From Nitrosomonas europaea (lineage in GTDB: Bacteria > Pseudomonadota > Gammaproteobacteria > Burkholderiales > Nitrosomonadaceae): a stretch of 32,000 nt of DNA. The notes under the pieces are model-generated. The model ran no database searches and had not been told where the DNA came from. It saw nothing but the letters and a program-made list of their open reading frames with translations. The stretch lies in the NCBI RefSeq assembly GCF_900167395.1, contig NZ_FUWK01000003.1, forward strand, positions 121,789-153,788. The letters are read 5' to 3'. Shown one piece after another: positions 14,506 through 32,000 of the stretch (positions are counted from its first letter, which is position 1; each line of letters starts with the position of its first letter). The position numbers and the translations under genes were made by a program.

Positions 14506-14873
14506 GGAATGATCAAAATTCGGTAAGGGAGCCCGGAATCTGTTGTAACTGATCCTTATCTCGGGAAATGAAGGGTTGTAACCGGTTACTTCAAAAGTTT
14601 ACTTCAGCATGTAAAGACTTATCCTTTCCAGGAATCATATATATATGTTTATGGCATAAAGACGAGATCGGCAGGCCCGGCGGAAAGTTTTGCAGACGGA
14701 CTGCAGCGTTGAGCTCATTGTGAAGGAGCCAGCCATTCACTGCCTCACTCGCCTTGTATCCCATCTGCGAAATACAGTGTGCGGCCATGTGGGACTTGAT
14801 CAGAGGTTTCCTAAGTAAAAGCTGCATTCAAAGTTACCGGGAATGACACGGTGTCGTTTTAGAAGGATAAAAA

Positions 14874-17800
14874 ATGGGTCGATCCATTAATAAGCATGCT
14901 ACGGATGATAGCAGAAGCGAATCACTGAATACTGGCACACAAGAAAGTGGTACTGACAAATCATCTTCATCTCCTGTCGCTATCGTTGGCTTTGCTTTTC
15001 GTTTTCCGGGAGATGTAAGCGATGAAACCGATTTCTGGAACGCACTGAAACAAAAACGTGATCTCGTAACCCAGATTCCGGCAGATCGCTGGGCTGTCGA
15101 TGAATTACAGCATGATAAACGTTCGGAGCACGGCCGCAGTATTACGTTCTCGGCAGGTGTTTTATCACATATAGAAGAATTCGATGCGAGCTTCTTCGGG
15201 ATTTCACCACGGGAAGCAGCGGTACTCGATCCTCAGCAGCGTCTTTTACTGGAGCTGACCTGGGAAACCATGGAAAACGCCGGAATTCCCCCTTCCTCCA
15301 TGGCAGGTTCGGATTGCGCGGTCTATGTGGGAATTTCCGGGTTTGATTATGGTATGTGCGAAGTGGATGATCTTGCTGTCATCACCTCGCACTCGATGAC
15401 GGGCAATACACTCAGTATTGCCGCCAACCGTATTTCCTATGCTTTTGATTTGCACGGCCCTTCACTGGCCGTGGACACAGCCTGTTCTTCATCGCTGGTG
15501 GCGCTGCATCACGCCTGTAATTGCCTGCGTAACGGGGAAGCCTCTACCGCTCTGGTTGGCGGAGTCAATTTATTGCTTCATCCCTATCCGTTTGTCGGAT
15601 TCACCAAAGCATCCATGCTTTCTGCCAAGGGTCGATGCAAACCTTTCGATGCTTCAGGAGACGGTTATGTGCGTTCAGAAGGTGCTGCCGTTCTGTTGCT
15701 CAAGCCTTTGGAAAAGGCGCTGGCCGATGGCGATGATGTTCATGCAGTCATTCTCTCCAGTGGAGTCAATGCCGATGGTGCCCGGAAAACCGGTATTACC
15801 ATTCCCAGTAGCGATGGCCAGGCTGAATTGATGCGTGCGGTACTGTCTCGCAGTGGGCTTTCATCAAAAGAAGTTGATTTCATCGAAGCGCATGGAACCG
15901 GGACAGTAGTAGGTGATCCGGTTGAAACCAGGGCGATCGGTATGGTTTATGGTCAGGAACGTACCAGACCGTTACCCATTGGATCGGTCAAGGCCAATCT
16001 CGGTCATCTTGAACCGGCTTCGGGCATGGCCGGCCTGATCAAAACAATACTGGCGCTCAAACACCGGGCGCTGCCACCCGCGATCCATCTGCACACACCT
16101 AACCCGCATATCGATTTCCAGGCGTTGAACCTGGAGCTGATCAGGAAATATAAGCCATTCAGTCGCAAACGGAAGAAACCACTTGTTGCCGGCGTCAATT
16201 CTTTCGGATTTGGGGGTGCCAATGCCCACGTGTTGTTAAAGGAGTTTGTTCCTCAAGATAGCAAGGCTGATACGTCATCGACCATGGAATCATTGCCGCC
16301 GCTCTTCCTGTCTGCCCGTACTGAGGCCGCTTTACGCGCTACGGCGGAGCATTACGTCGAACTGCTGAAAGGCAAATCTCCGCAGGAATTTTATGACATT
16401 GCCCATGCAGCGGCTTATCGGCGAGAGCAAATGGAAAAAAGACTGGCACTGCATACCGGCAAGGTGGATTCAACAGTCGATCTGCTCGATCGTTATGCCA
16501 AAGGTGACATGGTTTCCCGGGTTTTTGTCGAGGATGAGTTGCCGCAGAGCGGGGGAGTGGCTTTTGTCTACTCGGGAAATGGTACCCAATGGGCGGGGAT
16601 GGGGCGTGCGTTGCTTGCTGAATCTCCCCGGTTCAAAGAAATTCTCAGTGAAATTGATGAAATCATGCTGCCACAGGCAGGCTTTTCACTGATTACCGAG
16701 CTGGAAGCAGAGGATACAAATTCCAGACTGGATGATACGCGTGTTGCACAACCGCTGCTTTTTGCCATCCAGGTGGGTGTTACCACATTGCTTAGAGAGC
16801 AGGGTATTGAGCCTTCAGCCGTTACAGGGCACAGCGTAGGTGAAATTGCGGCTGCATGGGCATCGGGCGCGCTGGATCTGCAACAGGCCATTCATGTCAT
16901 TTGTGTTCGCAGCCAGGCACAGGGGCTGACTCGTGGAAAAGGCCGGATGGCAGCGGTAGGTCTGTCTGTCGAAGCGATACAGGAAATTATCACCACATTG
17001 GGTGTCGATGCTGAAGTGGAAATAGCCGGAATCAACAGTCCCGGCAATGTTACGCTCTCCGGCCCTCTCGAAGATTTGCAGCAAATACAGAGCGTGGCTG
17101 AATCCCGGGGCATTTTCTTCCGGCTGCTCGATCTCGATTATGCTTTCCATAGTCGCCAGATGGATGCCATTGAAGAACCATTGATTCGTCAGCTGGGTGA
17201 ACTTGCTCCTGCTTACACGGAAAGAGCCACGTTTGTTTCAACCGTTACCGGCAATGAGATTGACGGCCGTTTGCTCGATGCGGGTTACTGGTGGCGTAAC
17301 GTGCGTCAACCGGTTCAGTTTGCTGCTGCGATCAATAGAATTGCCGGGCTGGGTTGCAGAATATTGATTGAAATCGGGCCACATGCGATTTTGCAGCGGT
17401 ATATGGGTGAATGTCTGGCTGCGGCTGAAGTTCAGGGGCGTGTGATCCCGACATTGCGCCGTGATGACAACGGTTTGCAGAGAATTACCGAAACCGTGCT
17501 GCGTACACAGCTTCTTGCTGAGCGGCCATCGCTACAAACTTATTTCTCTGTTCCGGGCCGGCGGGTTCGTCTGCCCAACTATCCGTGGCAACGGGAACGG
17601 CACTGGATACCGTGGACGAATGAGGGATTACATTCGCTGGATCGTCGCCGGGTACATCCACTGCTGGGCTGGCGTATTCCGGGTGTCGATACCCTCTGGG
17701 AGAATACACTCGATCCGGTCACCTTGCCATGGCTGGCAGATCACAAGGTAGGCGGTGCTATCGTCTATCCCGGTGCTGCGTATGCCGAAATGTCACTGGC

Positions 17801-20800
17801 TGCTGCGCGTGAATGGCTGGGAGGAAAGCATTTCACAGTAGAGCAACTCGATATCATCTCCCCGATGGTTTTTGATGGTGAACATGCACGTACCACCCAT
17901 CTGATTCTCAATCCACGTGATGGTGGATTCCAGATCAAAAGTCGCCAGCGGCTCAGCGATGACGAATGGACGCTGCACGCTTCAGGACGCATTCTGGAAG
18001 CAGTCAACAGAATTCCTGTGGCGCGTATCGATGCGCCCGCAGTATCTGCTGAACACGTCGGGCATGAAATCCATTATCAGCGTGCATCACAGCTGGGCCT
18101 TGATTATGGCCCGGGTTTTCAAGGCGTGAGCAATATAAACATCGCAGCAGAAAGGCTTGAGGCTACTCTATCCTGCCCCGAATTACAGCATTTCGATGAT
18201 TATCTGCTGCACCCGGCAATACTGGATCTTTGCTTTCAGTCACTGATCGATTTCTTTGGTGAAGCAATCGATGCCGGGCAGGGGATCGCCTTGCTTCCCG
18301 TCAAAATGGGTAAGCTGAATTTTTGCGGCAATGGAAAAGTGGCATTCTTGCGTGCCAGACTATGTCGTCATGGTACCCGTTCCGCACTGGCGGATTTCGA
18401 ACTGCTGGACAATCAGAATAATCTGATCGCCAGTGCTTCGGCCTGCCGGTTCCGTGCTGCCCACCTCAAGCGTCACGTTCAGCAGAACATATCGAACTGG
18501 CGTATTGTTCCCTGGCTTAAGCCCCATCCGCTCGATGGTATGACCACGGCCATGCCGCCTGTAGCAGGCCTCATCGAACAAGTACGAGCACAATTCGATC
18601 GTGTCAAACATGATCGTCATACCTTATTCAAGGAAATACTTCCACTTACCGAAGCGTTGACATTATCGTTTGCCTGGCAGGCTGTACGGCAGATTCAACA
18701 GTATCGTCCATTGGATTGGCAGCAGATTTTTGATGGATCTCATGCAACTGCCCACGCCCGCTGGCTGGCGAATCTGCTGATCACTGAAGGATTGCTGAAT
18801 AAAGATGATGCCGGCCAGTGGTTTGTCACTATCGATGCGGATCTGCCTTCACCGGAAACAGTCTGGCAAACACTGCTAAATGATTTCCCGGTGTACCTGC
18901 CGCAGCTGATGCTCATGGGGAGAGTCGGTCAGCAATTGCCGGCATTGTTGTGTGGAGAAACTGATGCGCTGAAATTGCTGAATGAGTTGAAACATTCACC
19001 TGTGGCTGAAATGCGTTACCACGATGATCCGGTTTATCTGGGGATGCGGCTTGCTCTCGAGGAAATATTCAGAAATCTGGCAGGCAGCTGGCCTGTATCA
19101 CGCCGGCTGCGAATTCTGGAAATCACCGCTGGTTCCAGTGAACTGCCGAAAATACTGACGGGTTCATTACCCGAAGATCGTTTCGACTATGTTCTGGCCT
19201 TGCCGGATGAAGCTATGCAGGCACGCCAGCAGATCGAATATCAGGAGGATGCCAGCATTGTCGTGGCACGGTATGAGCCTGCCACACTGAAACTGTCTGC
19301 TGATCGTCGGTTACCTGATGCATTCGATGTCATTGTCCTGCATCACGCATTACATCGGACAAACAGCCCACACACAGCGCTGGCTCAAATCCGGCATCTG
19401 CTGGCTGCCGGGGGCATTCTTTTGCTGGCTGAACAGCATTCAGACTGGAGTACCAATTTTCTGGAAGGGATCGATCCCGGCTGGTGGCGTCAGCGCAACA
19501 AAACGCCAGATCTACCAGTATCTCCATTGTTATCGCCCGCAACGTGGCAACAATTGCTGAAGGATGCGGGATTTACGGATACAGAAACATTCTTTGAGCC
19601 CGCTGCAGAAGGTCTGGCCGAGGGAGCTTATCTGTTGCTTGCCAGATGCCCCGCACGAGATAGTGCCATTATTCCCGAGCCCGTCACTGCCTCGTGGTTA
19701 CTGGTAGCAGACGAATCTTCCGCAACCCTGGCCAGGCACCTGAGTAACCGGCTGCAATCATCGGGACAGCAGGTAACCATCACCAGCCGGATAGATGATG
19801 ATCTTTTGCAGAATACTGACCACATCGTTCATCTGCCGGGCTGGAACGATACTCCTGACCAGGCTGCGGATACGGTAACCCGGTTGATGGAGGATGTGAA
19901 GCTGCTGGCTGCCCGGATCGGGAAAACACCTCAATTCTGGCTCGTGACCCGTGGCGGTACGCTCATTAGCGGATGCCCGGCCGAGTCGGAATCCAGTCCG
20001 GCACAGTCTGCGCTCTGGGGATTCGGCCGTGTCGTCATGAACGAATATCCTCAGCTCGCCTGCACACTCATCGATCTGGTTTGTAACCCGGCAACCGTCA
20101 ATCTGGCAGACCGGCTGGTGAATGAACTGCTTGTCCCGGATGGCAGCAATGAAATTGTGCTTTCCGCAGCAGCGCGCTACTGCCTGGTCATGCAGGAAGC
20201 AACGAACCAGCAGATCAGGACGACAGAGCAGTCAGAGAAAAAGGATGAGCGATTTCATCTTGATTTTCACGTCCCCGGACAATTGCGCAACCTCGTCTGG
20301 TTGCCTGATGTTAAGCGTCAACTGGGTGATGACGAGGTTGAAGTATGTACCCGGGCCACCGGCCTCAATTTCCGTGATGTCATGTACCTCATGGGCCTGC
20401 TTCCGGATGAGGCCGTCGAAAATGGTTTTGCAGGCGCCAGCCTCGGGCTGGAATTTTCAGGGATCATCAGCCGGGTTGGGGCACGTGTAAAAGGCCTGTT
20501 ACCCGGTGATGCGGTCATGGGATTCGGTTCTTCCTGCTTTGCCAGCCATGTCATCACGCGAGCAGATGCCGTAGCACCTATGCCCGAGAACTGGTCGTTC
20601 GAGGCCGCAGCGACTGTACCCACCGTTTTTCTGACCGTCTATTACGCGCTCAAGCAGCTGGCAGCTCTGCAGCCGGGAGAGAGGGTACTGATTCACGGTG
20701 CAGCAGGGGGAGTCGGTATCGCTGCCATCCAGCTTGCACGTTATCTTGGCGCGGAAATTTATGCCACTGCAGGCAGTGATGAGAAACGGGATTTCGTCAA

Positions 20801-22508
20801 ATTGCTGGGAGCGGATCATGTGTTCGATTCACGCAGCCTGGCATTTGCTGACGATATTCTTGATGCCACTGCAGGTGAAGGAGTGGATGTGGTTCTCAAT
20901 TCACTTGCGGGTGAAGCCATGCGTCGCAGTATCGATGTGTTGAAACCCTTTGGCCGTTTTCTTGAACTGGGCAAACGCGATTTTTTTGAAAATACCCCGG
21001 TTGGCTTGCGTCCCTTCAAGAACAATATCAGCTATTTCGGCATCGATGCGGATCAGTTACTGACTGCGCGTCCCAGGCTTGCCGTACAACTCTTTCATGA
21101 GGTCATGGCACTGTTTCGTGAACAGGCACTGGCACCACTGCCTTATCGGGTATTTTCAGCCAATCGCATTACGGATGCTTTCCGTGTGATGCAGCAAGCA
21201 CGCCATATCGGCAAAATTGTCGTGTCTCTGGCAGATGCACGGCCAGATATCGAACAGCCTTTACAACCTGTTCCGGCAATACGATTTGAAAGAAACAGTA
21301 CATGGCTGGTCACCGGCGGGCTTTCCGGTTTTGGCCTGGAATCTGCCCGCTGGCTGGCAGAACGGGGTGTCGATCACTTAGTGCTGGCAGGGCGCCGTGG
21401 TATGGATACGCCAGGAGCAAAGGAAATCATCGAAACTTTCGCGGTTCAAGGGGTAAAAGTGATCGCACAGGCGTGCGACATCACTCACGCTGCAGCGGTT
21501 GATACGCTGATCGAACGTATCGGTAAAACACTGCCTCCTCTCAAAGGTGTGCTGCATGCAGCAGCGGTTTTCGACGATCAGCTGATTTCCAGTCTCGATC
21601 AGAAGCGCATCAGCAATGTCATGGATGCCAAACTGCTGGGCGCCTGGCATTTGCACCAGGCCACGCTCGGCACGCCGCTGGATTATTTCATTCTGTACTC
21701 CTCGGTTACTACCGCAATCGGAAATCCGGGGCAGGCCAATTATGTGGCTGCCAATGCAGGGCTCGAAGGGCTGGCGGCTATGCGTCGGCACATGGGTTTG
21801 CCAGCCACCTGCATTGCCTGGGGACCTGTCAGCGACACGGGATACCTCGCGCGTAATCAAGCCGTCAGAGACAGTCTCGAACAGCGCCTCGGTAAACCGC
21901 CTCTTCCGGCTGCAGAAGCGCTCACTCAACTGGATGTTGCACTCAATGACGAAACCGGATTTGTTATTCCTGCTGACTTCGACTGGAATACGCTGAGCCA
22001 TCTGCTGCCTTCAGCGAGCGGTAATCGTTTTGCTATTCTCAACCGGAACAGACGCAGCACCTCTCAAACTACCGAATCGATTGATATTCGGACGTTCATT
22101 ATTGGAAAAACCCGGGCTGAGGTAACAGAAATCGTACGTGGCTTTGTAGTGGAGGAGGTTGCGCAGATCCTGAGCATCAGCCCGGATCGTATCGAGTCAG
22201 GGCGCTCCCTGCATGATCATGGTATGGATTCGCTGATGGCGGTCGAGCTTGCTCTGGGGCTGGAGCGGCGCTTTGGTATCCAGTTACCGGTCATGATGCT
22301 CAACGATGCGCCCACGATTCATACAGTCACGGCACGTATCGTCGAGAAACTGACAAATAAAGGGGATATGCCGGAGGGAGAACAATCAGTCAGCCAGGTC
22401 ACCGAGTTTATCCGTCAGCACGGAGAGGAATTGATGCCGGAAGAAATCGACATCCTGAGTGAGGATGTACGCCATTTTGCTCAACAAGGAACAAGTCTAA
22501 TCGCATGA
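14874..22508 (+). CDS. type I polyketide synthase, single fully reducing module (KS-AT-DH-MT-like-ER-KR-ACP), no thioesterase
   Basis: KS: aa ~34-457 (DTACSSS Cys204, EAHGTGT, NLGH). AT: aa ~563-860 (GHSVGE Ser654, Arg679, YAFH). DH: aa ~926-1200 (HPLLG, YPGAAY, DLCFQ). SAM-MT-like: aa ~1390-1595, with a degenerate motif I (ILEITAGSS). ER: aa ~1795-2118 (HGAAGGVGIAAIQ). KR: aa ~2143-2325 (TGGLSGFG, GQANY). ACP: aa ~2412-2492 (GMDSL Ser2453). A tail of about 50 aa follows. SD-like AAGGA lies upstream of ATG 14874. Confidence 0.95.
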   Translation: MGRSINKHATDDSRSESLNTGTQESGTDKSSSSPVAIVGFAFRFPGDVSDETDFWNALKQKRDLVTQIPADRWAVDELQHDKRSEHGRSITFSAGVLSHIEEFDASFFGISPREAAVLDPQQRLLLELTWETMENAGIPPSSMAGSDCAVYVGISGFDYGMCEVDDLAVITSHSMTGNTLSIAANRISYAFDLHGPSLAVDTACSSSLVALHHACNCLRNGEASTALVGGVNLLLHPYPFVGFTKASMLSAKGRCKPFDASGDGYVRSEGAAVLLLKPLEKALADGDDVHAVILSSGVNADGARKTGITIPSSDGQAELMRAVLSRSGLSSKEVDFIEAHGTGTVVGDPVETRAIGMVYGQERTRPLPIGSVKANLGHLEPASGMAGLIKTILALKHRALPPAIHLHTPNPHIDFQALNLELIRKYKPFSRKRKKPLVAGVNSFGFGGANAHVLLKEFVPQDSKADTSSTMESLPPLFLSARTEAALRATAEHYVELLKGKSPQEFYDIAHAAAYRREQMEKRLALHTGKVDSTVDLLDRYAKGDMVSRVFVEDELPQSGGVAFVYSGNGTQWAGMGRALLAESPRFKEILSEIDEIMLPQAGFSLITELEAEDTNSRLDDTRVAQPLLFAIQVGVTTLLREQGIEPSAVTGHSVGEIAAAWASGALDLQQAIHVICVRSQAQGLTRGKGRMAAVGLSVEAIQEIITTLGVDAEVEIAGINSPGNVTLSGPLEDLQQIQSVAESRGIFFRLLDLDYAFHSRQMDAIEEPLIRQLGELAPAYTERATFVSTVTGNEIDGRLLDAGYWWRNVRQPVQFAAAINRIAGLGCRILIEIGPHAILQRYMGECLAAAEVQGRVIPTLRRDDNGLQRITETVLRTQLLAERPSLQTYFSVPGRRVRLPNYPWQRERHWIPWTNEGLHSLDRRRVHPLLGWRIPGVDTLWENTLDPVTLPWLADHKVGGAIVYPGAAYAEMSLAAAREWLGGKHFTVEQLDIISPMVFDGEHARTTHLILNPRDGGFQIKSRQRLSDDEWTLHASGRILEAVNRIPVARIDAPAVSAEHVGHEIHYQRASQLGLDYGPGFQGVSNINIAAERLEATLSCPELQHFDDYLLHPAILDLCFQSLIDFFGEAIDAGQGIALLPVKMGKLNFCGNGKVAFLRARLCRHGTRSALADFELLDNQNNLIASASACRFRAAHLKRHVQQNISNWRIVPWLKPHPLDGMTTAMPPVAGLIEQVRAQFDRVKHDRHTLFKEILPLTEALTLSFAWQAVRQIQQYRPLDWQQIFDGSHATAHARWLANLLITEGLLNKDDAGQWFVTIDADLPSPETVWQTLLNDFPVYLPQLMLMGRVGQQLPALLCGETDALKLLNELKHSPVAEMRYHDDPVYLGMRLALEEIFRNLAGSWPVSRRLRILEITAGSSELPKILTGSLPEDRFDYVLALPDEAMQARQQIEYQEDASIVVARYEPATLKLSADRRLPDAFDVIVLHHALHRTNSPHTALAQIRHLLAAGGILLLAEQHSDWSTNFLEGIDPGWWRQRNKTPDLPVSPLLSPATWQQLLKDAGFTDTETFFEPAAEGLAEGAYLLLARCPARDSAIIPEPVTASWLLVADESSATLARHLSNRLQSSGQQVTITSRIDDDLLQNTDHIVHLPGWNDTPDQAADTVTRLMEDVKLLAARIGKTPQFWLVTRGGTLISGCPAESESSPAQSALWGFGRVVMNEYPQLACTLIDLVCNPATVNLADRLVNELLVPDGSNEIVLSAAARYCLVMQEATNQQIRTTEQSEKKDERFHLDFHVPGQLRNLVWLPDVKRQLGDDEVEVCTRATGLNFRDVMYLMGLLPDEAVENGFAGASLGLEFSGIISRVGARVKGLLPGDAVMGFGSSCFASHVITRADAVAPMPENWSFEAAATVPTVFLTVYYALKQLAALQPGERVLIHGAAGGVGIAAIQLARYLGAEIYATAGSDEKRDFVKLLGADHVFDSRSLAFADDILDATAGEGVDVVLNSLAGEAMRRSIDVLKPFGRFLELGKRDFFENTPVGLRPFKNNISYFGIDADQLLTARPRLAVQLFHEVMALFREQALAPLPYRVFSANRITDAFRVMQQARHIGKIVVSLADARPDIEQPLQPVPAIRFERNSTWLVTGGLSGFGLESARWLAERGVDHLVLAGRRGMDTPGAKEIIETFAVQGVKVIAQACDITHAAAVDTLIERIGKTLPPLKGVLHAAAVFDDQLISSLDQKRISNVMDAKLLGAWHLHQATLGTPLDYFILYSSVTTAIGNPGQANYVAANAGLEGLAAMRRHMGLPATCIAWGPVSDTGYLARNQAVRDSLEQRLGKPPLPAAEALTQLDVALNDETGFVIPADFDWNTLSHLLPSASGNRFAILNRNRRSTSQTTESIDIRTFIIGKTRAEVTEIVRGFVVEEVAQILSISPDRIESGRSLHDHGMDSLMAVELALGLERRFGIQLPVMMLNDAPTIHTVTARIVEKLTNKGDMPEGEQSVSQVTEFIRQHGEELMPEEIDILSEDVRHFAQQGTSLIA

Positions 22509-23839
22509 ACAAACTCAGTCTTACCCGGAAAGCCAGAACACATCTCATAGATCATATTCTTGGCAGAAAAATGGAAGTAGCGGGTGGTGCTGCTCCTGCG
22601 TCGGCGGAGTGTCCAACCCGTTACTCGTCGATTCCTGATGCCTTTACCCGTTTTGACCGTTTCCCCGGCTATGAAAAAATGCTGGTTCCCAAGGCAGCAT
22701 CCGAGCGATTGGGTCTGGTAAATCCGTTTTTCCGGTCACACGATGGCGTGGCGGGAGCAACTACGCTCATCGGTGGACGTGAATTCATCAATTTTTCCAA
22801 TTACAGCTACCTTGGACTGGCCGGCCACCCTGCCGTGAGCCGAGCGGCAAAAGAAGCTATCGATCGCTATGGTACATCGGCATCTGCAAGCAGACTCGTG
22901 GCAGGTGAGCGACCGGCTCAGCGCAAACTGGAAGAAGCGCTGGCTAATTTATATGAGGTGGATGACTGCATCGTATTTGTCAGCGGACATGCGACCAACG
23001 TCAGCACGATCGGCTGTCTCTTCGGCCCGAAAGATCTGGTGATTCACGACAGTCTCATCCATAACAGTGTATTGCAGGGGATTCAGCTTTCAGGCGCAGC
23101 CCGTCGTTCATTTCCACATAATGACATGGCGGCACTTGAACAAATCCTGGCTGAGATCCGCGCGCAGTTCGAACGTGTGCTGATCGTTACCGAAGGGCTT
23201 TACAGCATGGATGGTGATATTCCGGATCTGCCGGAACTCATCCGCATCAAACAGCACCATAAAGCCTTTCTGATGGTGGATGAAGCGCATTCCCTGGGAG
23301 TACTGGGAGAGACAGGAAAAGGAGTACGGGAACACTTCGGTATCCAAGGCAAAGCAGTGGATATCTGGATGGGCACGCTCAGCAAGACATTGGCTGGATG
23401 TGGCGGTTACATTGCCGGAGAACGGGCGCTTGTCGAGCACCTGAAATATGCAGCACCAGGTTTTGTCTACAGTGTCGGTATGGCGCCCTCCCTGGCGGCT
23501 GCTTCTCTGGAAGCGTTGCGTATCATGCAGCGAGAACCGGAGCGGGTAGCACGGTTACGTGAACGAGGGCAGCAATTTCTGGAGCTGATGCAATCTCTGG
23601 GCGTCAATACCGGCCTTGCTCAGGGCTATGCCGTCATTCCCGCCATCATTGGCAGCTCGCTCAAAGCGGCCCGGCTGTCAAACCAGTTTTTCGATGCCGG
23701 TATCAATGTCCAGCCGATCATCCATCCCGCGGTTGAAGAGAAAGCCGCAAGACTCAGATTTTTCCTGTCAGCCATGCATACCGATCAGCACGTACGGTAT
23801 ACCTGTGAAGTCATGAAGAAACTGACGGGTCTCCACTAA
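22505..23839 (+). CDS. PLP-dependent alpha-oxoamine synthase family enzyme (8-amino-7-oxononanoate synthase / serine palmitoyltransferase-like)
   Basis: NFSNYSYLGL, SGHATN, DEAHSLGVLG and the PLP-lysine motif GTLSKTLAGCGGY are present. The start overlaps the PKS stop (ATGA at 22505-22508). Confidence 0.9.
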   Translation: MNKLSLTRKARTHLIDHILGRKMEVAGGAAPASAECPTRYSSIPDAFTRFDRFPGYEKMLVPKAASERLGLVNPFFRSHDGVAGATTLIGGREFINFSNYSYLGLAGHPAVSRAAKEAIDRYGTSASASRLVAGERPAQRKLEEALANLYEVDDCIVFVSGHATNVSTIGCLFGPKDLVIHDSLIHNSVLQGIQLSGAARRSFPHNDMAALEQILAEIRAQFERVLIVTEGLYSMDGDIPDLPELIRIKQHHKAFLMVDEAHSLGVLGETGKGVREHFGIQGKAVDIWMGTLSKTLAGCGGYIAGERALVEHLKYAAPGFVYSVGMAPSLAAASLEALRIMQREPERVARLRERGQQFLELMQSLGVNTGLAQGYAVIPAIIGSSLKAARLSNQFFDAGINVQPIIHPAVEEKAARLRFFLSAMHTDQHVRYTCEVMKKLTGLH

Positions 23840-23865
23840 TCCTTTTGCCTGTTAACAAGAAAAAT

Positions 23866-25056
23866 ATGAACACGGAGAATCACTTTATTCGTATCGGATT
23901 ATTGCTGGCAGGAATCATGCTGATAAGTGCGCTGTCTGGTTGCGCAACTCAGCCTGACTGGGTTTCTTCCAGCGGGGCAAGCCGGGAGCAAATCCTGAAA
24001 AAGAGCGAACCCGGCCAGATTGGAGGGATCGGGTTGGTCGGTGTCGACGACACGCTTGCCAGAAAACTTTTTGAAGCGAAAAAACTGGGCCAGTTTGCCG
24101 ATATTTTCCCGAGTTCATCCACCAATAACTACATCATCGGCCCGGGTGACGTGATCGATGTCACCATCTGGGAAGCTCCCCCCGCCATGCTGTTTGGCGC
24201 AATCGTTCTCGACCCTTCAGCCGGCCCGACGACCACGCGAGGGGTTACCTTTCCGGAACAAATGGTGACGTCGGACAGCACAATTGCCATACCGTTTGCC
24301 GGCCGGGTTTCCGTCAGGGAGCGTACTGCCCAGGAGATTGAAAGAGAAATCATCGTACGGCTGTACGGTAAAGCCAACCAGCCCCAGGTACTGGTGCGGG
24401 TCATCAAAAACAATACATCCAACGTCACGATCGTGGGCGAAGTCAATAACAGCACACTGATGGCACTGACACCCAAAGGCGAAAGACTGCTCGATGCGCT
24501 GGCCATAAGCGGTGGAGTCAAACAATCCATCAATCGTATGGCAGTTCAGCTATCACGCGCCAATGTGACAGCAACCATGGCGCTTGACTCGGTCATTCGG
24601 GATCCGAAGCAGAATATCCTGCTCAAACCCGGCGATGTGATTACTGCCTTGTATCAGCCGCAGAGTTTTTCGGTATTGGGGGCAACCGGTAAGAATGAAG
24701 AAGTACTCTTCGAAGCTCAGGGTATTTCTCTGGCACAGGCACTGGCGCGTTCGGGCGGCCTGGCGGATAACCGTGCCGATGCACGCGGTGTATTCATATT
24801 CCGGTTTGAAGATGCAAAACTGGTCGATGCCGGTCATTCGTTGACTGCCGGAGCCGATGGGACTGTGCCAGTGGTGTATCAGGTCGATTTGCGTGATCCC
24901 GCATCATTCTTCGTCACCCAGAATTTTCCGGTCCAGAATCGCGATGTGATTTATGTCGCCAATTCTCCGGAAGCTGAATTCAACAAATTCATGAAGCTGC
25001 TGATATCCGTTGCGATGCCCGGCCTGACGATCAACCGAATGTTCCTGCTGAATTGA
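23866..25056 (+). CDS. outer-membrane polysaccharide export (OPX; Wza/KpsD-like) lipoprotein
   Basis: Signal peptide with lipobox (IMLISALSGC). The Poly_export motif PGDVIDVTIWE is followed by SLBB-like repeats (GEVN..., KPGDVITAL). Start is either ATG 23866 (preferred) or TTG 23845. Confidence 0.85.
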   Translation: MNTENHFIRIGLLLAGIMLISALSGCATQPDWVSSSGASREQILKKSEPGQIGGIGLVGVDDTLARKLFEAKKLGQFADIFPSSSTNNYIIGPGDVIDVTIWEAPPAMLFGAIVLDPSAGPTTTRGVTFPEQMVTSDSTIAIPFAGRVSVRERTAQEIEREIIVRLYGKANQPQVLVRVIKNNTSNVTIVGEVNNSTLMALTPKGERLLDALAISGGVKQSINRMAVQLSRANVTATMALDSVIRDPKQNILLKPGDVITALYQPQSFSVLGATGKNEEVLFEAQGISLAQALARSGGLADNRADARGVFIFRFEDAKLVDAGHSLTAGADGTVPVVYQVDLRDPASFFVTQNFPVQNRDVIYVANSPEAEFNKFMKLLISVAMPGLTINRMFLLN

Positions 25057-25092
25057 TGACTCGACCCAATCCACTGCTGTTTTCTTTCAGGT

Positions 25093-25884
25093 ATGGCTAT
25101 GGCTGAAGCTCGAAATCCGCTGCTTGTTTCCTTTGCTGTCTGGAAGGCGATTTTTCTGCGTGAAGCACTCGACCGGCTGTTCGATATGCGGGCTGCATGG
25201 TTCTGGCTGCTGGTCGAACCCGTTCTGCACATCGGCTTCCTGGTTTTCATCTTTACCGTCATTCGTATGCGTACGGTTGGCAATGCCGATGTCGCGGTAT
25301 GGATCATCGTCGGTATGCTGGCGTTCTTTCTGTTCCGGCGGACAGCAGTTCAGGTGACCTATGCGGTCGATTCCAACCGGCCCTTGTTCACTTATCGCCA
25401 GGTCAAACCGTTTGATCCGGTCCTTGCGCGTGCGGTGCTGGAAGCTTTTCTGATGTCGATTATTTCGATCATCATAATAGGTACCGCGATCCTGCTGGGT
25501 CACGAAGCATGGCCATACGATGCTTTACTGGTTTTGCAGGCCAACTTCGGGCTGTGGCTGTTTGGTATTGGCTATGGTCTGGTTGCATCGGTATTGATGG
25601 AGCTTGTCCCGGAAATGGAACATGTCCTCAAGATTCTGATGCTGCCGCTGTACCTGATTTCCGGCGTCATCTTGCCTTTGGCTGCCATACCCCAGCCTTA
25701 TCTCGATCTGTTGCTGCTGAATCCGATTGCACATGGGCTTGAACTGGCGCGTGCAGGCTTTTTTCCCTACTACCACACCGTGCCGGGCCTCAGCATGGAA
25801 TATCTTTATGCATGGGGTATCTCCGGCATATTTCTCGGTTTGATACTGTACCGCCGCTTTGCTTTACAGCTGGTGATGAGGTGA
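25093..25884 (+). CDS. kpsM: capsule-type ABC-2 transporter permease
   Basis: A 263-aa polytopic protein with the ABC-2 layout (about 6 hydrophobic spans) and an N-terminus ...VWKAIFLREALDRLF typical of KpsM/Wzm. It sits directly upstream of the KpsT-like ATPase. Confidence 0.82.
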   Translation: MAMAEARNPLLVSFAVWKAIFLREALDRLFDMRAAWFWLLVEPVLHIGFLVFIFTVIRMRTVGNADVAVWIIVGMLAFFLFRRTAVQVTYAVDSNRPLFTYRQVKPFDPVLARAVLEAFLMSIISIIIIGTAILLGHEAWPYDALLVLQANFGLWLFGIGYGLVASVLMELVPEMEHVLKILMLPLYLISGVILPLAAIPQPYLDLLLLNPIAHGLELARAGFFPYYHTVPGLSMEYLYAWGISGIFLGLILYRRFALQLVMR

Positions 25885-25960
25885 ATACGAAAATGGAAAT
25901 AAAGTTGAAAATTGTCATGATGTTAAGGCAACAAACAAGCGGTCAACTGGGGTTTTCAGG

Positions 25961-26623
25961 ATGATTGTTATCGAAGATGTATATAAGCGCTATAAAACAG
26001 ACCATGGCCCTGGTAAATGGATATTACAAGGCGTCAATCTGACGATTCCGCGTAATGTCAATGTCGGTCTGATCGGTTCAAATGGCGCGGGCAAATCTAC
26101 CTTGCTGCGTATCATCGGCGGTATCGATCACCCTAATAAAGGAAAAGTGGAACGTCGCTGCCGGCTTTCCTGGCCAATGGGGCAGGGTGGACTGGAACCG
26201 ACGCTGACCGGACGGCAGAATGCCAAATTCGTTTGCCGGTTGCATGGCCACCAGGATGATCTTCCTGAACGGCTGATATTCATACAGGATTTTTCCGGAC
26301 TGAAAGATGCTTTCGATGAGCCGGTGAACACCTACTCATCCGGGATGCGCTCGCGCCTGCAGTTTGCAATGTCACTTGCGTTCGATTTCGATATTTATAT
26401 TTCTGATGAAGTGACTGCTGCAGGGGATGCCGCTTTTCGTGACAAGGCAGCCGCCGCTTTCAAAGGGATGACCAATCGCGCCGGACTGATCATGGTCGCT
26501 CACAGCGAAAGCACACTCAGGCAATTTTGTGAGGCCGGTATTTTGCTTTATCAGGGTAAAGCGCAGTGGTTCGACAAAATCGAGGAAGCCTTCAAAGCGT
26601 ATAAGGACACCGTACAAAAATGA
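25961..26623 (+). CDS. kpsT: capsule-type ABC transporter ATP-binding protein
   Basis: Walker A GSNGAGKST, signature YSSGMRSRL and Walker B IYISDEV. The short (220 aa) single-NBD size is typical of KpsT. Confidence 0.9.
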   Translation: MIVIEDVYKRYKTDHGPGKWILQGVNLTIPRNVNVGLIGSNGAGKSTLLRIIGGIDHPNKGKVERRCRLSWPMGQGGLEPTLTGRQNAKFVCRLHGHQDDLPERLIFIQDFSGLKDAFDEPVNTYSSGMRSRLQFAMSLAFDFDIYISDEVTAAGDAAFRDKAAAAFKGMTNRAGLIMVAHSESTLRQFCEAGILLYQGKAQWFDKIEEAFKAYKDTVQK

Positions 26624-27786
26624 CGCAACTCCAGCAAAGTGTAATTGAATCTCAGCCAGGCAAACTAAGTGATTATCTCGGACATACCAGGAGAAATCGG
26701 TTTTCCATACGGCTGTTTTCGGGCCTGATAGGGTTCATTCTGGTATTGGCTGTCATGGCCACCGGTTACTGGCTGGTTTTTGCCTCCGATCGCTATGTTT
26801 CGGAAGCAAGCGTGATCATTCGTAAAACGGACTCAGTGACTGCCCCCAGCTTTGATCTGTCCATGCTGATTGCCGGTGTGGCCGGAGTGAACCGTGCGGA
26901 TCAGTTATTATTGCGGGAATATCTGCTTTCAGTGGATATGCTCAAAAAACTCGATACAGAGCTCGATTTACATGCGCACTACAGTGATGAGCACTATGAT
27001 CTTCTTTCACGCATGTGGCTGAAGGATATGGAATGGTTTCATCGCCATTATCTTTCACGGGTTTCAATCGAATACGATGATTATGCCGGCGTGCTCCGGA
27101 TCAACGCCCAGGCTTATGATCCTGAAATAGCACGTGCTATTTCAAACCTGCTGGTACGCGAGGGTGAGCGTTACATGAACCAGATCAGCCATGAACTGGC
27201 AGAAACACAGGTCAGCTTCCTGACTACCCAGGTGAATCTGGCTCAACTGCGCTTCCAGCAGGTCAGACAGAAATTACTGGCCTATCAGAACAAGAAAGGG
27301 CTGCTTTCACCCCAGGCAACCGTGGAGAGCCTCAATACCCTCATTGCCAAACTGGAGGAGCAGCGTGCTCAGCTCAAAACGCAGCTGGCATCTTTACCCA
27401 GGACGCTGGATCGTAACCACCCCAATTTGGTAATGCTCAGGCAATCCCTGGCGGCCATCGATCGGCAGATTACCGATGAAAAAGCAAAACTTGCCAATCC
27501 CACAGGAAAAACCCTGAATATCACGATGGAAGAATTCCAGCGGCTGGAAATGGAAGTTACCTTTGCGCAAGAACTTTATAAAGCGGCGCTCACTGCACTG
27601 GAAAAAGGCAGGATCGATGCCACACGCATGCTGGATAAAGTTTCCGTACTGCAGGCACCCACCCTTCCTGAATATCCGATGGAGCCCCGGCGTATCTATA
27701 ACACCCTGGTTACACTGCTGTTTGCACTGATGCTGGCTGGAATCCTGAAGCTGCTGGAAGGCATCATACTCGACCATGTAGATTGA
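26620..27786 (+). CDS. kpsE: capsule export inner-membrane/periplasmic adaptor (PCP-3; KpsE/CtrB family)
   Basis: An N-terminal TM (LIGFILVLAVMATGYWLVF) is followed by YVSEASVIIRK, a long coiled-coil region and a C-terminal TM. The start overlaps the kpsT stop (ATGA at 26620-26623). Confidence 0.82.
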   Translation: MTQLQQSVIESQPGKLSDYLGHTRRNRFSIRLFSGLIGFILVLAVMATGYWLVFASDRYVSEASVIIRKTDSVTAPSFDLSMLIAGVAGVNRADQLLLREYLLSVDMLKKLDTELDLHAHYSDEHYDLLSRMWLKDMEWFHRHYLSRVSIEYDDYAGVLRINAQAYDPEIARAISNLLVREGERYMNQISHELAETQVSFLTTQVNLAQLRFQQVRQKLLAYQNKKGLLSPQATVESLNTLIAKLEEQRAQLKTQLASLPRTLDRNHPNLVMLRQSLAAIDRQITDEKAKLANPTGKTLNITMEEFQRLEMEVTFAQELYKAALTALEKGRIDATRMLDKVSVLQAPTLPEYPMEPRRIYNTLVTLLFALMLAGILKLLEGIILDHVD

Positions 27787-27809
27787 CGGGTTGCGTGACA
27801 AGCTCAATC

Positions 27810-28008: not shown

Positions 28009-28136
28009 AGATTCCTCAGGGAATCTCTGATCAGCCCCTCCGTGAGACGCGATATAGTAGACAGGTTTATATGTGAGATTTGTTTGGAGGATATGTAAGT
28101 TGTTTTTACAACTGGTTTTCTGGAAAAGGGGGATGC

Positions 28137-29027
28137 ATGAAAATTCGTAAAGCGGTTTTTCCGGTGGCGGGGCTGGGTACTCGTTTTTTACCAGCCACCA
28201 AGGCCAGCCCCAAGGAGATGCTGCCGGTGGTGGATAAGCCACTCATACAATATGCTGTGGAAGAAGCCTGGGCTGCTGGTATTACCGAAATGATATTCGT
28301 CACGGGTCGCAGCAAGCGCAGCATTGAAGATCATTTTGATAAAGCGTATGAGCTGGAATCCGAGCTGGAGCGCCGGGGAAAAACCGAGATGCTGCAGTAC
28401 GTGCGCAATCTGTTGCCCGACGATATGAAGTGTGTGTATATCCGCCAGTCTGAAGCACTGGGTCTGGGCCACGCGGTGCTATGCGCCCAGCCGGCGGTGG
28501 GTGATGAACCTTTTGCTGTGTTACTGGCTGACGATTTACTTGAAGGTGACCCTGTCGTGATACGCCAGATGGTGGATGTGTACGAGTACTACAAGTGCTC
28601 GGTGCTGGGTGTGCAGCAGGTGCCGCGTGAAGATACGCGCAGCTATGGCATAGTGGCCAGCCAGCCGATTCGTGATGATCTGGAAGCAGTACAGTTCATT
28701 GTGGAAAAACCTGATCCGGAAGAGGCTCCTTCCACCATGGCAGTGGTTGGACGTTATGTACTCACCCCGCGCATTTTCCATCACCTGATACGGTTGGGCA
28801 AAGGCACCGGGAGCGAGATACAGTTGACCGACGGTATTGCTGCGTTGATGCAGGAAGAGCAGGTGCTGGCCTATCGTTACAAAGGCCAGCGTTACGACTG
28901 TGGCAGCAAGATAGGCTATTTGGAAGCCACCTTGGCTATGGCGCGTAAGCACCCTGAAGTGGGGGCGCAGTTTGAACAGCTGTTACAGTCGTTTCAGCAC
29001 CAGGGAAACTCTGAAGAACGTCAGTGA
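28137..29027 (+). CDS. galU: UTP--glucose-1-phosphate uridylyltransferase
   Basis: [44 protein letters not shown]...VLLADDL...VEKP are canonical GalU motifs. Start set to ATG 28137. Confidence 0.95.
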
Positions 29028-29140
29028 AGTAATCAGCTCAAAGCAAAAGTCTGCGAGAAAGTGGAGTTTATACGACGTGATAAATGAGCATTTTGAGCGT
29101 AACTTCCAGCGCAGAAATAGCAATACAGATGGTTTTTCAG
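29002..29140 (+). repeat. MITE-like repeat, copy B (core 29011-29140, 130 bp), overlapping the last codons and stop of galU
   Basis: CTGAAGAAC (29011-29019) and GTTTTTCAG (29132-29140) form terminal inverted repeats with one mismatch. Copy B aligns with copy A along its length, in the same orientation. Confidence 0.7.
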
Positions 29141-29335
29141 GTGCCATGGCAGCGTGCGTTTTATCCTTTTGGTTTTCGCCTTTCCCAGCGATTTTTTTGT
29201 CCGACGGGATCTCACAGAGTGGCCTGATAAAAAATGAAAGCTGTAAATAGCGGGAGAATATATTGCTATTTCAACAATAACTGATATGAGAAGTTATGCG
29301 AAATTACCCGTTTGTACAAAATCGTTAAAGGATGA

Positions 29336-29688
29336 ATGATGTTTTTGCTGTTCACTAACGAGATCATTGAACGTATCAGCAATGTTTTACTTCTTTATCT
29401 GGTAACTTCAACCGTCGTTGATGAAGTAGTGCCTGGATCGGCTGCGACGTGGAGAAAAAAGTTATATCTCATCTTTTCCCTCATTTTTTACTACAGTATC
29501 TGGGTGAGCACGCTAAAGAAATTACAGGCCATAGGGAAAAGACGTTATTAGCATGGCTTGTCTTGCATGAGCCGGTCTTTAGAAAAACGTTGATTAAATC
29601 AATAAATATCATTAATGATGCATCGCGACAGGTTGCCATAGGCGTAGGCGCTCCCCGGAAAGAAATCAGAATCAACCACTTGAATTAA
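29336..29688 (+). pseudogene. possible frameshifted or degenerate hypothetical gene (two overlapping ORFs, 29336-29551 and 29449-29688)
   Basis: The two ORFs can be joined by a 1-nt shift at the A6 run 29455-29460 (...GSAATWRKK / EKKVISHLFPHFLLQYLGEHAKEITGH...). AAAGGA lies upstream of ATG 29336/29339. No family recognised. Confidence 0.2.
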
Positions 29689-29947
29689 TTCTGGAATACT
29701 CATCGACACCAACAGCTGCTATTACGCTCTGGCAGGATCAAACGCGGGCGGCGCGGCACAACTGCTCTCGTCAGAATAAAGTTGCAAGCCTATCAGAAGA
29801 CTGTGGTCTGCCCTCCATTTACTATTTACCAGAAATAACGGGAAGAAATTATCGAAGTACAGCAGGATAAAATTACTACGCAGATTTAGAGCGATCCAGA
29901 GAAGAAATTATAGAGTCCTGCTTAGAACAAGAAGAAAACCTTCTTCT

Positions 29948-30901
29948 ATGTTGGATAGCAACAAAGGCACTTCCAAAGTCATTGTTGCTCCAAAAATTTT
30001 TGATATAAACAAAAATGAAAACCGTGGAAATTTAACAATATTTCTTGGGAAGCTGAGAAAATATTTCACACATAATGGATCACATGAAATAACTATCGAT
30101 TTTACACAAACAGAGAAATTTATTGCTGCGGGAACTCTGTTATTTTATTCAGAATTAGCTTATTTAAAGCAGTTTATAAATAACGAAACAAGGCTCAGGT
30201 ATATACCTCCAAAGAATCCTAAAGCATTTGAAGTACTTATCCAGATAGAACTTTATAAACTCTGTGGAATAAGAAAGCCAAAGTCAAAAAACGCCAATAA
30301 GTACGATGATGTGTTGAACTGGAAAGTAGCTTGTGGCAACGTGGTAAACAATGAACAGTGTGCGCCCACAATTGAGGCATACGAAGGGCAGTTAGCCGAG
30401 CCTCTAATTGATGGAATATTCAAAGGGCTTGCAGAAGCGATGACTAATACGGTTCATCACGCCTACGCCGAGATCCGAGAAGATGGGCTAAACCATAAAC
30501 CTTCCAAGAATAATTGGTGGATGTTTTCTCAAGCAAGAGATGGAGAACTGACCGTTGTTTTCTGTGATTTAGGGATAGGTATACCAAGATCGTTACCAAA
30601 AAAACATCCATCAATTTTTCACAAGATGCTCTCACTTGGCAAGATTAGTGATCATCAATGCATTGCTTCATCTGTTGAACTAAACGCTACAAGCACCAAG
30701 ATGCCTGGCAGGGGGAAAGGCCTTGGGAACATCATAGAAATTGCCAGCAAAAACAAAGCAGGTGGCGTCATTATTTACAGCAATAAAGGGATGTATAGAC
30801 TCGGTCCGGATGCAACTGAGCCTTTCTCTCGTGATCTAAAAAATAGTATATTGGGAACAATTATTTGCTGGAATGTAACGCTAAGTAAGGTGGGTTTATG
30901 A
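29948..30901 (+). CDS. fused STAS-like N-domain + GHKL (RsbW/SpoIIAB-like) ATPase/kinase
   Basis: C-terminal half: N-box EAMTNTVHHA (ExxxNxxxH), G1 box DLGIGIP, G2 box GRGKGLGNI and a terminal GTIICW strand. N-terminal half: EITIDFTQTEKFIAAGTLLFYSEL...EVLIQIELYKLCG resembles the STAS pattern (xDFsgvxFIdSsGlxxL...vLxxtgLxxxf). Confidence 0.65.
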   Translation: MLDSNKGTSKVIVAPKIFDINKNENRGNLTIFLGKLRKYFTHNGSHEITIDFTQTEKFIAAGTLLFYSELAYLKQFINNETRLRYIPPKNPKAFEVLIQIELYKLCGIRKPKSKNANKYDDVLNWKVACGNVVNNEQCAPTIEAYEGQLAEPLIDGIFKGLAEAMTNTVHHAYAEIREDGLNHKPSKNNWWMFSQARDGELTVVFCDLGIGIPRSLPKKHPSIFHKMLSLGKISDHQCIASSVELNATSTKMPGRGKGLGNIIEIASKNKAGGVIIYSNKGMYRLGPDATEPFSRDLKNSILGTIICWNVTLSKVGL

Positions 30902-31236
30902 AAATTATTAATATAAGGGAAAATTTTTCCAGATATCCTGCAGGAAGATATCGTGCCGATGGCCCGTATAACGGTGAAAAATTCAGAGAAGAACTCCTTG
31001 TTCCTGCTTTGTCTGAAGCCATAGACAAAGGTGAAAAAGTTAAGGTAGAGCTCGACGGAGTGCGGGGCTACAACTCTTCATTTCTGGAAGAAGCGTTTGG
31101 TGGGCTGGTGCGATCCGGTAAGTTTGCATCAACCCGGGATTTATCAGAAAGATTCGAATTCGTCTCTACAGACAAGAGCCTAATTGAAGAAATACGCGGA
31201 TACATGGAAGAAGCTACACCTGCAGTAGCACAATAA
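30898..31236 (+). CDS. STAS-like protein of the DUF4325 type
   Basis: This 112-aa protein contains ...RYPAGRYRADGPYNGEKFREELL...KVKVELDGVRGYNSSFLEEAFGGL, matching my recollection of DUF4325 (STAS-like). The start overlaps the upstream stop (ATGA at 30898-30901). Confidence 0.65.
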   Translation: MKIINIRENFSRYPAGRYRADGPYNGEKFREELLVPALSEAIDKGEKVKVELDGVRGYNSSFLEEAFGGLVRSGKFASTRDLSERFEFVSTDKSLIEEIRGYMEEATPAVAQ

Positions 31237-31240
31237 TGTC

Positions 31241-31726
31241 TTGTTACCAGAATTGCTGGCTATGGCTCAACTTCTAGTCTCATGGTTATTAATAATAGGC
31301 GGATGGCTCTTTGTACACAGAGCCACCCTCAGCAGGGAAAGAAGAAAGGAAAAAAGAGAAGAAATCAACAATACTATTCAAGAAATCAGAGCGATAGAAA
31401 ACATTGCAATTGATTTTCATAATTCGAAAATCTTCGATGAAAAAGCAGCCAGTAGTCTTACTCTCAGGATAAACAGGCTCAACAGAAAACTGCAGGCACC
31501 CCCTACATTCAATGAACTTAAGATCCCGACTCAATTAATGATTGAGTTCAGGAAAACAATTACTCTCGAACATTTTGACAAGTCGAACTTCCCTTCCATG
31601 GTTCAACGCATCATGAAAGGTAATCCTTACCCGGCTACTTCTATTGAGATTTTGATCAGAGACATCAATTCCGCCACTGATGATTTAGTAGATTGTATAG
31701 AAGCGGAAAAGAATAATAAATTGTAG
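31241..31726 (+). CDS. hypothetical membrane-anchored protein: one N-terminal TM helix plus a charged helical domain of about 130 aa
   Basis: LLAMAQLLVSWLLIIGGWLFVH is followed by RATLSRERRKEKREEINN. Start is TTG 31241 or ATG 31262, 5-26 nt after the upstream stop, so it is probably co-transcribed. No family recognised. Confidence 0.55.
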   Translation: MLPELLAMAQLLVSWLLIIGGWLFVHRATLSRERRKEKREEINNTIQEIRAIENIAIDFHNSKIFDEKAASSLTLRINRLNRKLQAPPTFNELKIPTQLMIEFRKTITLEHFDKSNFPSMVQRIMKGNPYPATSIEILIRDINSATDDLVDCIEAEKNNKL

Positions 31727-31835
31727 TAGTTCAGATTTGATCTGACAGCAGGTCTTGCCAAGAGGTGGGATTACCCGGTTTGATAGAGGTGCGAATCTTT
31801 ATCAACCAAACGCGAAAGCGTAAAGGAGTAATCCC

Positions 31836-32000
31836 ATGAGCAGTGTTCATCATAAAATCATTAAACACAAGATTGGCTTGCTTAATCTGGCAGCTGAGCT
31901 TGGCAATGTATCCCGTGCCTGTAAGGTGATGGGTTTTTCTCGCGATACTTTCTATCGCTATCAGGCAGCTGTGGAAACAGGAGGTGTTGAAGCTCTGATA
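31836..32000 (+). mobile_element. IS transposase gene, N-terminal HTH part (integrase/rve-type, IS481-like by recollection); continues past the window end
   Basis: AAGGAG (31822-31827) precedes ATG 31836. MSSVHHKIIKHKIGLLNLAAELGNVSRACKVMGFSRDTFYRYQAAVETGGVEALI is a typical transposase HTH N-terminus. GC content rises again from about 31740. The IS left end was not located. Confidence 0.7.

Follow-up and report, generated by a model that had tools for sequence, protein, structure and literature searches.

The polyketide synthase and alpha-oxoamine synthase genes of Nitrosomonas europaea as the likely lipid-forming part of an rkp-1/wcb-class capsule locus

The wcb and rkp gene clusters are homologous capsule clusters, and those of Nitrosomonas have been described as rkp-type, with capsule synthesis and export genes; the polyketide synthase (PKS) of N. 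europaea (NP_841435) has been cited as WcbR-type (PMC3908369). The rkp-1 region is genetically required for capsule secretion, with products that are said to form or alter a specific lipid carrier on which K-antigen secretion depends (PMC4881576); the wcbPQRT operon of Cobetia is reported as one of capsule lipid biosynthesis about which little is known (PMC11766843), and insertions in wcbT, wcbQ and wcbS are depleted 24-30-fold in mouse lung Tn-seq, like those in other capsule genes (PMC4631991). Here we analyze a stretch of 32,000 nucleotides from N. europaea (contig NZ_FUWK01000003.1, positions 121,789 to 153,788; herein the window), in which genes for a PKS and an alpha-oxoamine synthase (AOS) are followed by four genes for a Kps-type, ABC-transporter-dependent export apparatus. 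The six genes are likely the conserved lipid and export core of a capsule locus of the rkp-1/wcb class, with the lipid made by the PKS and AOS as the acceptor or anchor of the polymer. The locus is a member of a known family with unsolved chemistry, and both the membership of Nitrosomonas and the idea of a lipid anchor are already known.

The six genes are co-directional and span 14874-27786 on the plus strand. The open reading frames (ORFs) called in an earlier reading of these letters (the original prediction) were reproduced exactly, and its six gene assignments and the identity of the flanks (sbcD, galU and a foreign island) are correct by ORF and domain analysis. The core consists of the following genes:

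14874..22508, plus strand: RkpA/WcbR-type PKS, a single-module, fatty acid synthase (FAS)-like, fully reducing type I enzyme, assigned from Pfam domains, RkpA homology and motifs
22505..23839, plus strand: RkpG/WcbT-type AOS, pyridoxal phosphate (PLP)-dependent, assigned from Pfam, NCBIfam, RkpG homology and motifs
23845..25056, plus strand: KpsD/RkpU-like outer-membrane polysaccharide export (OPX) lipoprotein, with Poly_export and SLBB domains, a lipobox and RkpU homology
25093..25884, plus strand: KpsM-type ABC-2 permease (PF01061, NF050053)
25961..26623, plus strand: KpsT-type ABC ATPase (PF00005, ABC_tran)
26620..27786, plus strand: KpsE-type polysaccharide co-polymerase (PCP-3), matched by TIGR01010, with N- and C-terminal membrane helices

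All six genes are intact and under strong purifying selection, with dN/dS values of 0.03-0.14 against three Nitrosomonas relatives and zero stop codons, and their spacing is operon-like (intergenic gaps of -4, 32, 36, 76 and -4 nt along the series). The AOS gene overlaps the PKS gene by 4 bp in a start/stop ATGA, which suggests translational coupling of the two, and the KpsE gene overlaps that of KpsT by 4 bp. The public gene call places the start of the OPX gene at an alternative site, 23866. Positions 19948-32000 of the window are 100% identical to the N. europaea chromosome CM135170.1.

The PKS is a protein of 2544 aa with a single module (KS-AT-DH-MT-like-ER-KR-ACP, the ACP being C-terminal); a Pfam domain search found no thioesterase in it. 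It is 33% identical to RkpA of Sinorhizobium meliloti over 1576 aa, and its dN/dS is 0.11-0.14. The catalytic motifs are intact throughout (KS Cys/His/His; AT GHSVG and YAFH; DH HxxxGxxxxP; ER HGAAGGVG; KR Tyr; ACP DSL). The Phe of the AT motif YAFH is typical of malonyl-specific domains; the motif is present in 15 of the 17 aligned family members, and S. meliloti RkpA and the PKS of survey locus L070 have YPFH. Conservation is lowest in the MT-like region (17-49% identity; KS and ER reach 48-83%), and the GxGxG S-adenosylmethionine motif is absent from every aligned family member; by these alignments the region is a structural pseudo-domain, as in animal FAS.

The AOS (444 aa; Aminotran_1_2 in Pfam) is 55% identical to S. 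meliloti RkpG and is conserved at more than 70% identity across many Betaproteobacteria. Its motifs (the PLP Lys in SKT, the His and DEAH) are intact, and its dN/dS is 0.06. The best NCBIfam models, bioF, KBL and SPT, match it about equally, each below its cut-off; the scores against the SPT models are 304 bits for a cut-off of 640 (NF047600), 266 for 500 (NF047599) and 201 for 670 (NF047603). The nearest solved structure is the Sphingobacterium SPT, and the closest structures are SPT at 222 bits, BioF/KBL at 216 and KBL at 209. An attempt to read the amino-acid substrate from these structures failed, since the three kinds score about equally.

In the pathway that we propose, the FAS-like PKS would iterate on its own ACP and build a long acyl chain from malonyl units; a saturated, unbranched chain is expected because the PKS motifs are intact and the MT-like region is a pseudo-domain. 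The AOS would release this chain by decarboxylative Claisen condensation with a small amino acid, giving a sphingoid-like 2-amino-3-keto lipid, and it offers the simplest release route because the PKS has no thioesterase and the AOS start overlaps the PKS stop. In fungi, fumonisin (Fum1/Fum8) and sphingofungin are likewise made by a fully reducing PKS without a thioesterase, whose chain is transferred to an amino acid by an AOS. The likeness of the window pair to these systems, and to bacterial SPT, is one of mechanism only; no ceramide synthase or 3-keto reductase is encoded near the window AOS. Cytoplasmic assembly of the capsule polymer would then take place on this lipid or a derivative of it, which would be the polymer's acceptor or anchor in the membrane.

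The export genes form a complete set of the polysaccharide type, with KpsM/KpsT, a PCP-3 and a Wza/KpsD-like OPX. The OPX protein carries an LSGC lipobox, is 32% identical to S. meliloti RkpU and has a dN/dS of 0.05-0.10. KpsM matches NF050053 at 122 bits and KpsE matches TIGR01010 (BexC/CtrB/KpsE) at 274 bits (cut-off 437), both below cut-off, and the best NCBIfam matches of KpsT are the glycan-export ATPases Wzt, TagH and VexC. Since all NCBIfam scores lie below the equivalog or subfamily cut-offs, the proteins are divergent Kps homologs. As is known for these families, KpsM and KpsT would carry the lipid-linked polymer across the inner membrane, and KpsE and the OPX lipoprotein would bring it to the cell surface.

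Relatives of the locus were collected in an AOS-anchored scan with one genome per species, which found them in at least 593 species; the best 80 loci were analyzed, with ORFs selected by a GC3 filter and family hidden Markov models (HMMs) and recurrent partners confirmed with Pfam. The co-conservation that the original prediction had proposed to look for was found. In 77 of 78 loci the PKS gene immediately precedes that of the AOS, and 42 of the 49 loci with full 10-kb flanks carry Kps export genes, KpsS/KpsC, a short-chain dehydrogenase/reductase (SDR) or a sulfatase-family membrane protein. The same six-gene order is also present in Neisseriales, Burkholderiales, Methylobacillus and Desulfovibrionales. 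The divergence of the six proteins is correlated across 16 window-type loci (r = 0.87-0.95), with a contribution from shared descent. The recurrent partners match the S. meliloti rkp-1 region and the Burkholderia wcb block, a set that we take to correspond to wcbO-P-Q-R-S-T.

The closest known system is rkp-1 of S. meliloti and S. fredii, which the original prediction missed; its choice of wcb as a known relative is sound. In rkp-1, too, RkpA stands directly before the AOS RkpG, with the OPX protein RkpU alongside, and the S. meliloti neighborhood comprises OPX, PKS, AOS, SDR, sulfatase-like and KpsS-like genes and kpsF (the rkp names are our own presumed assignments to this record, which carries generic product names). 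Missing from the Nitrosomonas locus are the SDR RkpH, the sulfatase-family protein RkpI, the KpsS homolog RkpJ and kpsF. Family HMMs for the RkpH-type SDR, RkpI/WcbQ sulfatase-family proteins and RkpJ/WcbO KpsS found none of them in the window or in loci L086-L099; the same HMMs recover the SDR, the sulfatase-family protein and the KpsS homolog in the S. meliloti locus (L085). The rhizobial KpsMTE homologs lie in a separate region, rkp-3, whereas the KpsMTE genes of Nitrosomonas are in the same operon as the PKS and AOS. Judging by its length of 3.72 Mb and by the presence of rkp-1, secD and further chromosomal genes, the S. meliloti record itself (CP090106.1, labelled in PLSDB as "Sinorhizobium meliloti Ak57 plasmid pSymB") is probably a mislabelled chromosome.

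The wcb locus (CPS I) of Burkholderia pseudomallei and B. mallei likewise contains a WcbR-type PKS and the AOS WcbT within an ABC-transporter-dependent capsule locus, and the analogy drawn with it earlier holds: the window PKS is ~42% identical to the PKSs of Burkholderia and Paraburkholderia, and the AOS is 57-63% identical to theirs in the survey. Burkholderia differs in having the LpxC-like WcbS between PKS and AOS, as well as the sulfatase-like WcbQ, the SDR WcbP and a GNAT protein. Its wcb locus keeps the KpsS/KpsC homologs WcbO/WcbA.

Domain and family-HMM scans found no glycosyltransferase, KpsC or KpsS encoded anywhere in the window, as had been stated; the remaining genes of the window are of housekeeping, chemotaxis and outer-membrane types. 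The lack of glycosyltransferases arises because the window ends at 32000, and the arrangement that had looked minimal is a product of this edge and of a mobile insertion. Two features follow kpsE within the window:

28080..29027, plus strand: galU, UTP-glucose-1-phosphate uridylyltransferase (TIGR01099, 376 bits, above cut-off), with a probable start at 28137
29030..32000, no strand given: low-GC island (GC 0.39-0.42), the first 3 kb of ~7.4 kb

On the N. europaea chromosome a polymerase gene starts on the same strand at ~36397 in window coordinates, ~8.6 kb after kpsE. It encodes a 1217-aa protein with GT2 and CDP-glycerol glycerophosphotransferase (Glyphos_transf, TagF-like) domains, and is followed by genes for a 493-aa GT2 protein and a 307-aa GT-B-like protein. 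The original prediction had asked whether both glycosyltransferases and kpsC/kpsS lie just outside the window: glycosyltransferases do, but no KpsS/KpsC is found in the next 10 kb of the chromosome. One of its two proposals, that the PKS/AOS pair builds an anchor for a glycan encoded elsewhere, is the best-supported reading, except that "elsewhere" turns out to be the same locus.

Within the window the island has ORFs for a HATPase_c_2-like protein of 317 aa, a DUF4325 (STAS-like) protein of 112 aa and a third product of 161 aa; past the window (L089/L090, 10001-16400) it carries an rve integrase gene and several gene pairs of the PIN/MazE and HTH_37/Gp49 types. By its content it resembles a mobile toxin-antitoxin/defence insertion; it splits the capsule locus and is not part of the system. 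The island was also considered as a serotype region, a role rejected on its content of HATPase/STAS-like, insertion sequence and toxin-antitoxin genes. It is missing from relatives L087, L098 and L099. Island-less relatives, whose AOS is 83% identical, have 13 contiguous co-directional genes followed by unrelated ones. The first seven encode PKS, AOS, OPX, KpsM, KpsT, KpsE and GalU, and after these come a 271-aa TPR-like protein, a Dsr1 fragment, the orthologous polymerase, GT2, GT-B and a 184-aa protein. The fragment (L099, 8707-9591, between galU and the polymerase gene) is a C-terminal piece of the anti-phage sirtuin Dsr1 (NF041818, 446 bits), which suggests that defence and mobile genes have inserted repeatedly at the galU-polymerase junction.

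The original prediction had taken galU for an unrelated boundary gene. It follows kpsE in every Nitrosomonas-lineage locus whose contig extends far enough, and is therefore probably not unrelated to the capsule genes; in island-less relatives it leads on to the polymerase gene. GalU is probably a member of the capsule locus that supplies UDP-glucose. A separate observation concerns the sequence record: over 12 kb the sole difference between the window and ATCC 19718 (AL954747.1) is a 1-nt indel at 28345, inside galU, which splits the gene into ORFs of 71 and 234 aa in that 2003 record and is absent from the window and CM135170.1, where galU is intact.

We propose that the polymer is assembled by the GT2+TagF-like polymerase, the GT2 and the GT-B proteins, with GalU providing UDP-glucose. 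The polymerase type and the conserved galU suggest that the polymer is probably a teichoic-acid-like glucosyl-glycerol-phosphate; no CDP-glycerol synthesis gene was seen. The region downstream of the core varies by strain: L091/L092 have other glycosyltransferases and two further proteins, CC611 and c27, and strain HPC101 has a GT1 gene upstream of the PKS. The Nitrosomonas loci therefore consist of a conserved core and a variable region, like capsule variable region 2.

These glycan genes bear on the other proposal of the original prediction, that the amino lipid made by the PKS and AOS is itself the cargo of KpsMTE and the OPX protein, with no glycan involved. The absence of a glycosyltransferase from the window, the packing of the six genes like one operon and the mobile island that parts them from the glycosyltransferase genes in N. 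europaea would all fit such a system. However, the exporter is a complete polysaccharide-type set including a PCP-3 and a Wza/KpsD-like OPX, nearly all relatives with enough downstream sequence carry nucleotide-sugar and glycosyltransferase genes after kpsE or upstream of the PKS, and the downstream region is strain-variable in the manner of a serotype region. In addition, genetic evidence links the rhizobial and Burkholderia homologs to the making of capsule (PMC4881576, PMC4631991). We regard export of the free lipid as very improbable and return to a lipid that would anchor a capsular polymer.

How such a lipid relates to the known terminal lipids depends on KpsS and KpsC. The kps loci of E. 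coli groups 2/3 and Cronobacter likewise combine KpsM/T/E/D-type export with conserved regions flanking a variable glycan region, but in them KpsS and KpsC build a beta-Kdo linker on phosphatidylglycerol (PG) (PMC8760489), and PKS and AOS are absent. The Nitrosomonas locus has PKS and AOS, lacks KpsS/KpsC, and its polymerase has an extra TPR-like N-terminal domain. This domain, CC611, makes up the first ~360 residues of the N. europaea polymerase. The polymerase homolog of Cronobacter is 48% identical over residues 359-1179 only and is without the CC611 domain; its gene is part of a classical locus that also encodes KpsM, KpsT, KpsS, KpsC, KpsD and KpsE. This contrast is the best argument for a PKS/AOS lipid that would replace the PG-Kdo primer in window-type loci.

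KpsS/KpsC are absent from all eight surveyed window-type loci with at least 8 kb of downstream sequence, and no Capsule_synth signal was found at E<=1e-4 in L086-L099, including the complete 13-gene locus (L098/L099). Such loci could be a second KpsS/KpsC-independent class of ABC-transporter-dependent capsule after Vi, in which the PKS/AOS amino lipid directly replaces the PG-poly-Kdo primer; we regard this as a tentative proposal, somewhat less probable than its converse. An architecture without kpsSC, SDR and sulfatase genes, with the lipid genes fused to the export operon, may be new; our literature searches brought up no paper in which the lipid product is identified or a kpsSC-less PKS/AOS architecture described.

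The rival reading is a classical Kdo-linker capsule with unlinked kpsS/kpsC, in which the PKS/AOS lipid would merely take the place of PG as the beta-Kdo acceptor, a role that is likely for it in rkp-1/wcb loci that contain both gene sets. CMP-Kdo is available in any Gram-negative bacterium from lipopolysaccharide synthesis. At least 15 of the 80 loci surveyed have KpsS and/or KpsC next to the PKS and AOS, among them those of Zoogloea (L019), Thauera (L032) and L030, which are in the AOS clade of the window, and that of S. meliloti; because they sit beside the pair in many genomes, it is no general rule that PKS and AOS replace KpsC and KpsS. On the other hand, the window-type loci are uniform in lacking both, and kpsS/kpsC are normally found together with the export genes of a capsule locus, which is the case in the Cronobacter locus with the homologous polymerase. 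We consider unlinked kpsSC genes unlikely.

Vi antigen was as of 2021 the only known kpsSC-less variation of the prototype; group 2 capsules keep PG-Kdo as the terminal lipid and Vi keeps diacyl-HexNAc (PMC8760489). The viaB loci (Salmonella Typhi and soil Burkholderiales) resemble the Nitrosomonas locus in being ABC-transporter-dependent, without kpsSC and provided with a different terminal lipid, but the Vi lipid is made with the VexE acyltransferase and without PKS or AOS. The window proteins score 85, 52, 77 and 89 bits against the VexA, VexB, VexC and VexD models, for cut-offs of 456, 297, 313 and 905; no VexE-like gene was noted, and no TviBCDE-like set is present in the Nitrosomonas locus.

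The CC611 domain occurs in seven of the eight window-type loci. As separate proteins, CC611 (~610 aa; a TPR-like conserved part and a long coiled coil) and c27 (470-595 aa) recur right after kpsE, at ~15.1-19.0 kb in L003/L004/L011, at 6.6-9.8 kb in L092 and in other window-type loci. Against Pfam and NCBIfam, neither CC611 nor c27 has a match beyond a weak TPR hit and coiled-coil noise, and structure prediction of the N-terminal 360 residues of the polymerase gives a mean pLDDT of 54, with only a helical-repeat stretch confident. Both are candidates for chain-length control or for coupling of synthesis to export.

The lipid may also act before export without remaining on the product, as a transient carrier, a primer or a regulatory lipid needed, for example, for assembly of the export complex. 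The term "lipid carrier" in the rkp literature (PMC4881576) points this way, and the SDR, sulfatase/LtaS-like, LpxC-like and GNAT genes of rkp-1/wcb suggest that the lipid is processed further. Known ABC-transporter-dependent capsules, however, keep their terminal lipid (PMC8760489), and the Nitrosomonas locus shows no transferase or hydrolase that could release the polymer; a transient role is improbable, though less so than export of the free lipid.

Several points weigh against the lipid anchor that we favor. The family of RkpA and RkpG has no chemistry for any member, whether product, substrate or chain length, and the AOS is about equally similar to SPT, KBL and BioF. The locus has no SDR (RkpH) that would reduce the 3-keto group and neither RkpI (sulfatase/LtaS-like) nor RkpJ (KpsS), which are partners in rkp-1/wcb; because these are missing, the pathway either differs from that of rkp-1/wcb or uses unlinked genes. 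No enzyme joining glycan to lipid was identified. In N. europaea the 7.4-kb island separates the core from the polymerase genes, which makes their co-transcription unlikely. Finally, the capsule of this strain is a predicted one.

Upstream, the core is bounded by two features:

13264-14505, minus strand: sbcD, the upstream flank
14506..14873, plus strand: presumed promoter region, 368 nt between the divergent sbcD and the PKS gene, with no notable ORF

The promoter is presumed from position alone. A consensus promoter scan of 14.4-29.9 kb gave fewer promoter-like sites than shuffled sequence and none that was convincing; a terminator scan of the same interval gave no convincing site, and an ops/JUMPStart element was looked for and not found. 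The genes sbcC (8617-11880, minus strand) and sbcD are normally one operon; here they are 1.4 kb apart, with an opposite-strand alpha/beta-hydrolase ORF (12501-13205) between them, and beyond sbcD the Nitrosomonas relatives have other genes (Pirin, PhoD). A FadL/Toluene_X-type outer-membrane transporter is encoded in two adjoining plus-strand ORFs (7211-7972 and 8021-8524) that cover profile positions 17-225 and 281-421, and looks frameshifted or interrupted. At 3324-6945 on the minus strand, a 507-aa protein with three CheW domains, an unusual multi-CheW adaptor, is encoded beside a methyl-accepting chemotaxis protein with a PAS domain and another PAS ORF.

The product of RkpA/RkpG (WcbR/WcbT) has been a standing question since the 1990s, one that matters for how capsules are assembled in rhizobial symbiosis and by the select agents B. 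pseudomallei and B. mallei. Of the loci seen here, those of the Nitrosomonas type are the most reduced, with PKS, AOS and exporter in one operon and no SDR, sulfatase-like, LpxC-like or KpsS/KpsC gene nearby, and the contrast with the classical Cronobacter locus, which holds a close homolog of the same polymerase, provides testable grounds for a primer lipid that is not PG-Kdo. If the window-type loci do form a second KpsS/KpsC-independent class, it would be common among environmental Betaproteobacteria (nitrifiers, Accumulibacter, Methylobacillus, Alcaligenes and Aquitalea) and would extend to Desulfovibrionales. The capsules of nitrifiers and of wastewater organisms such as Accumulibacter, Zoogloea and Thauera affect floc and biofilm formation.

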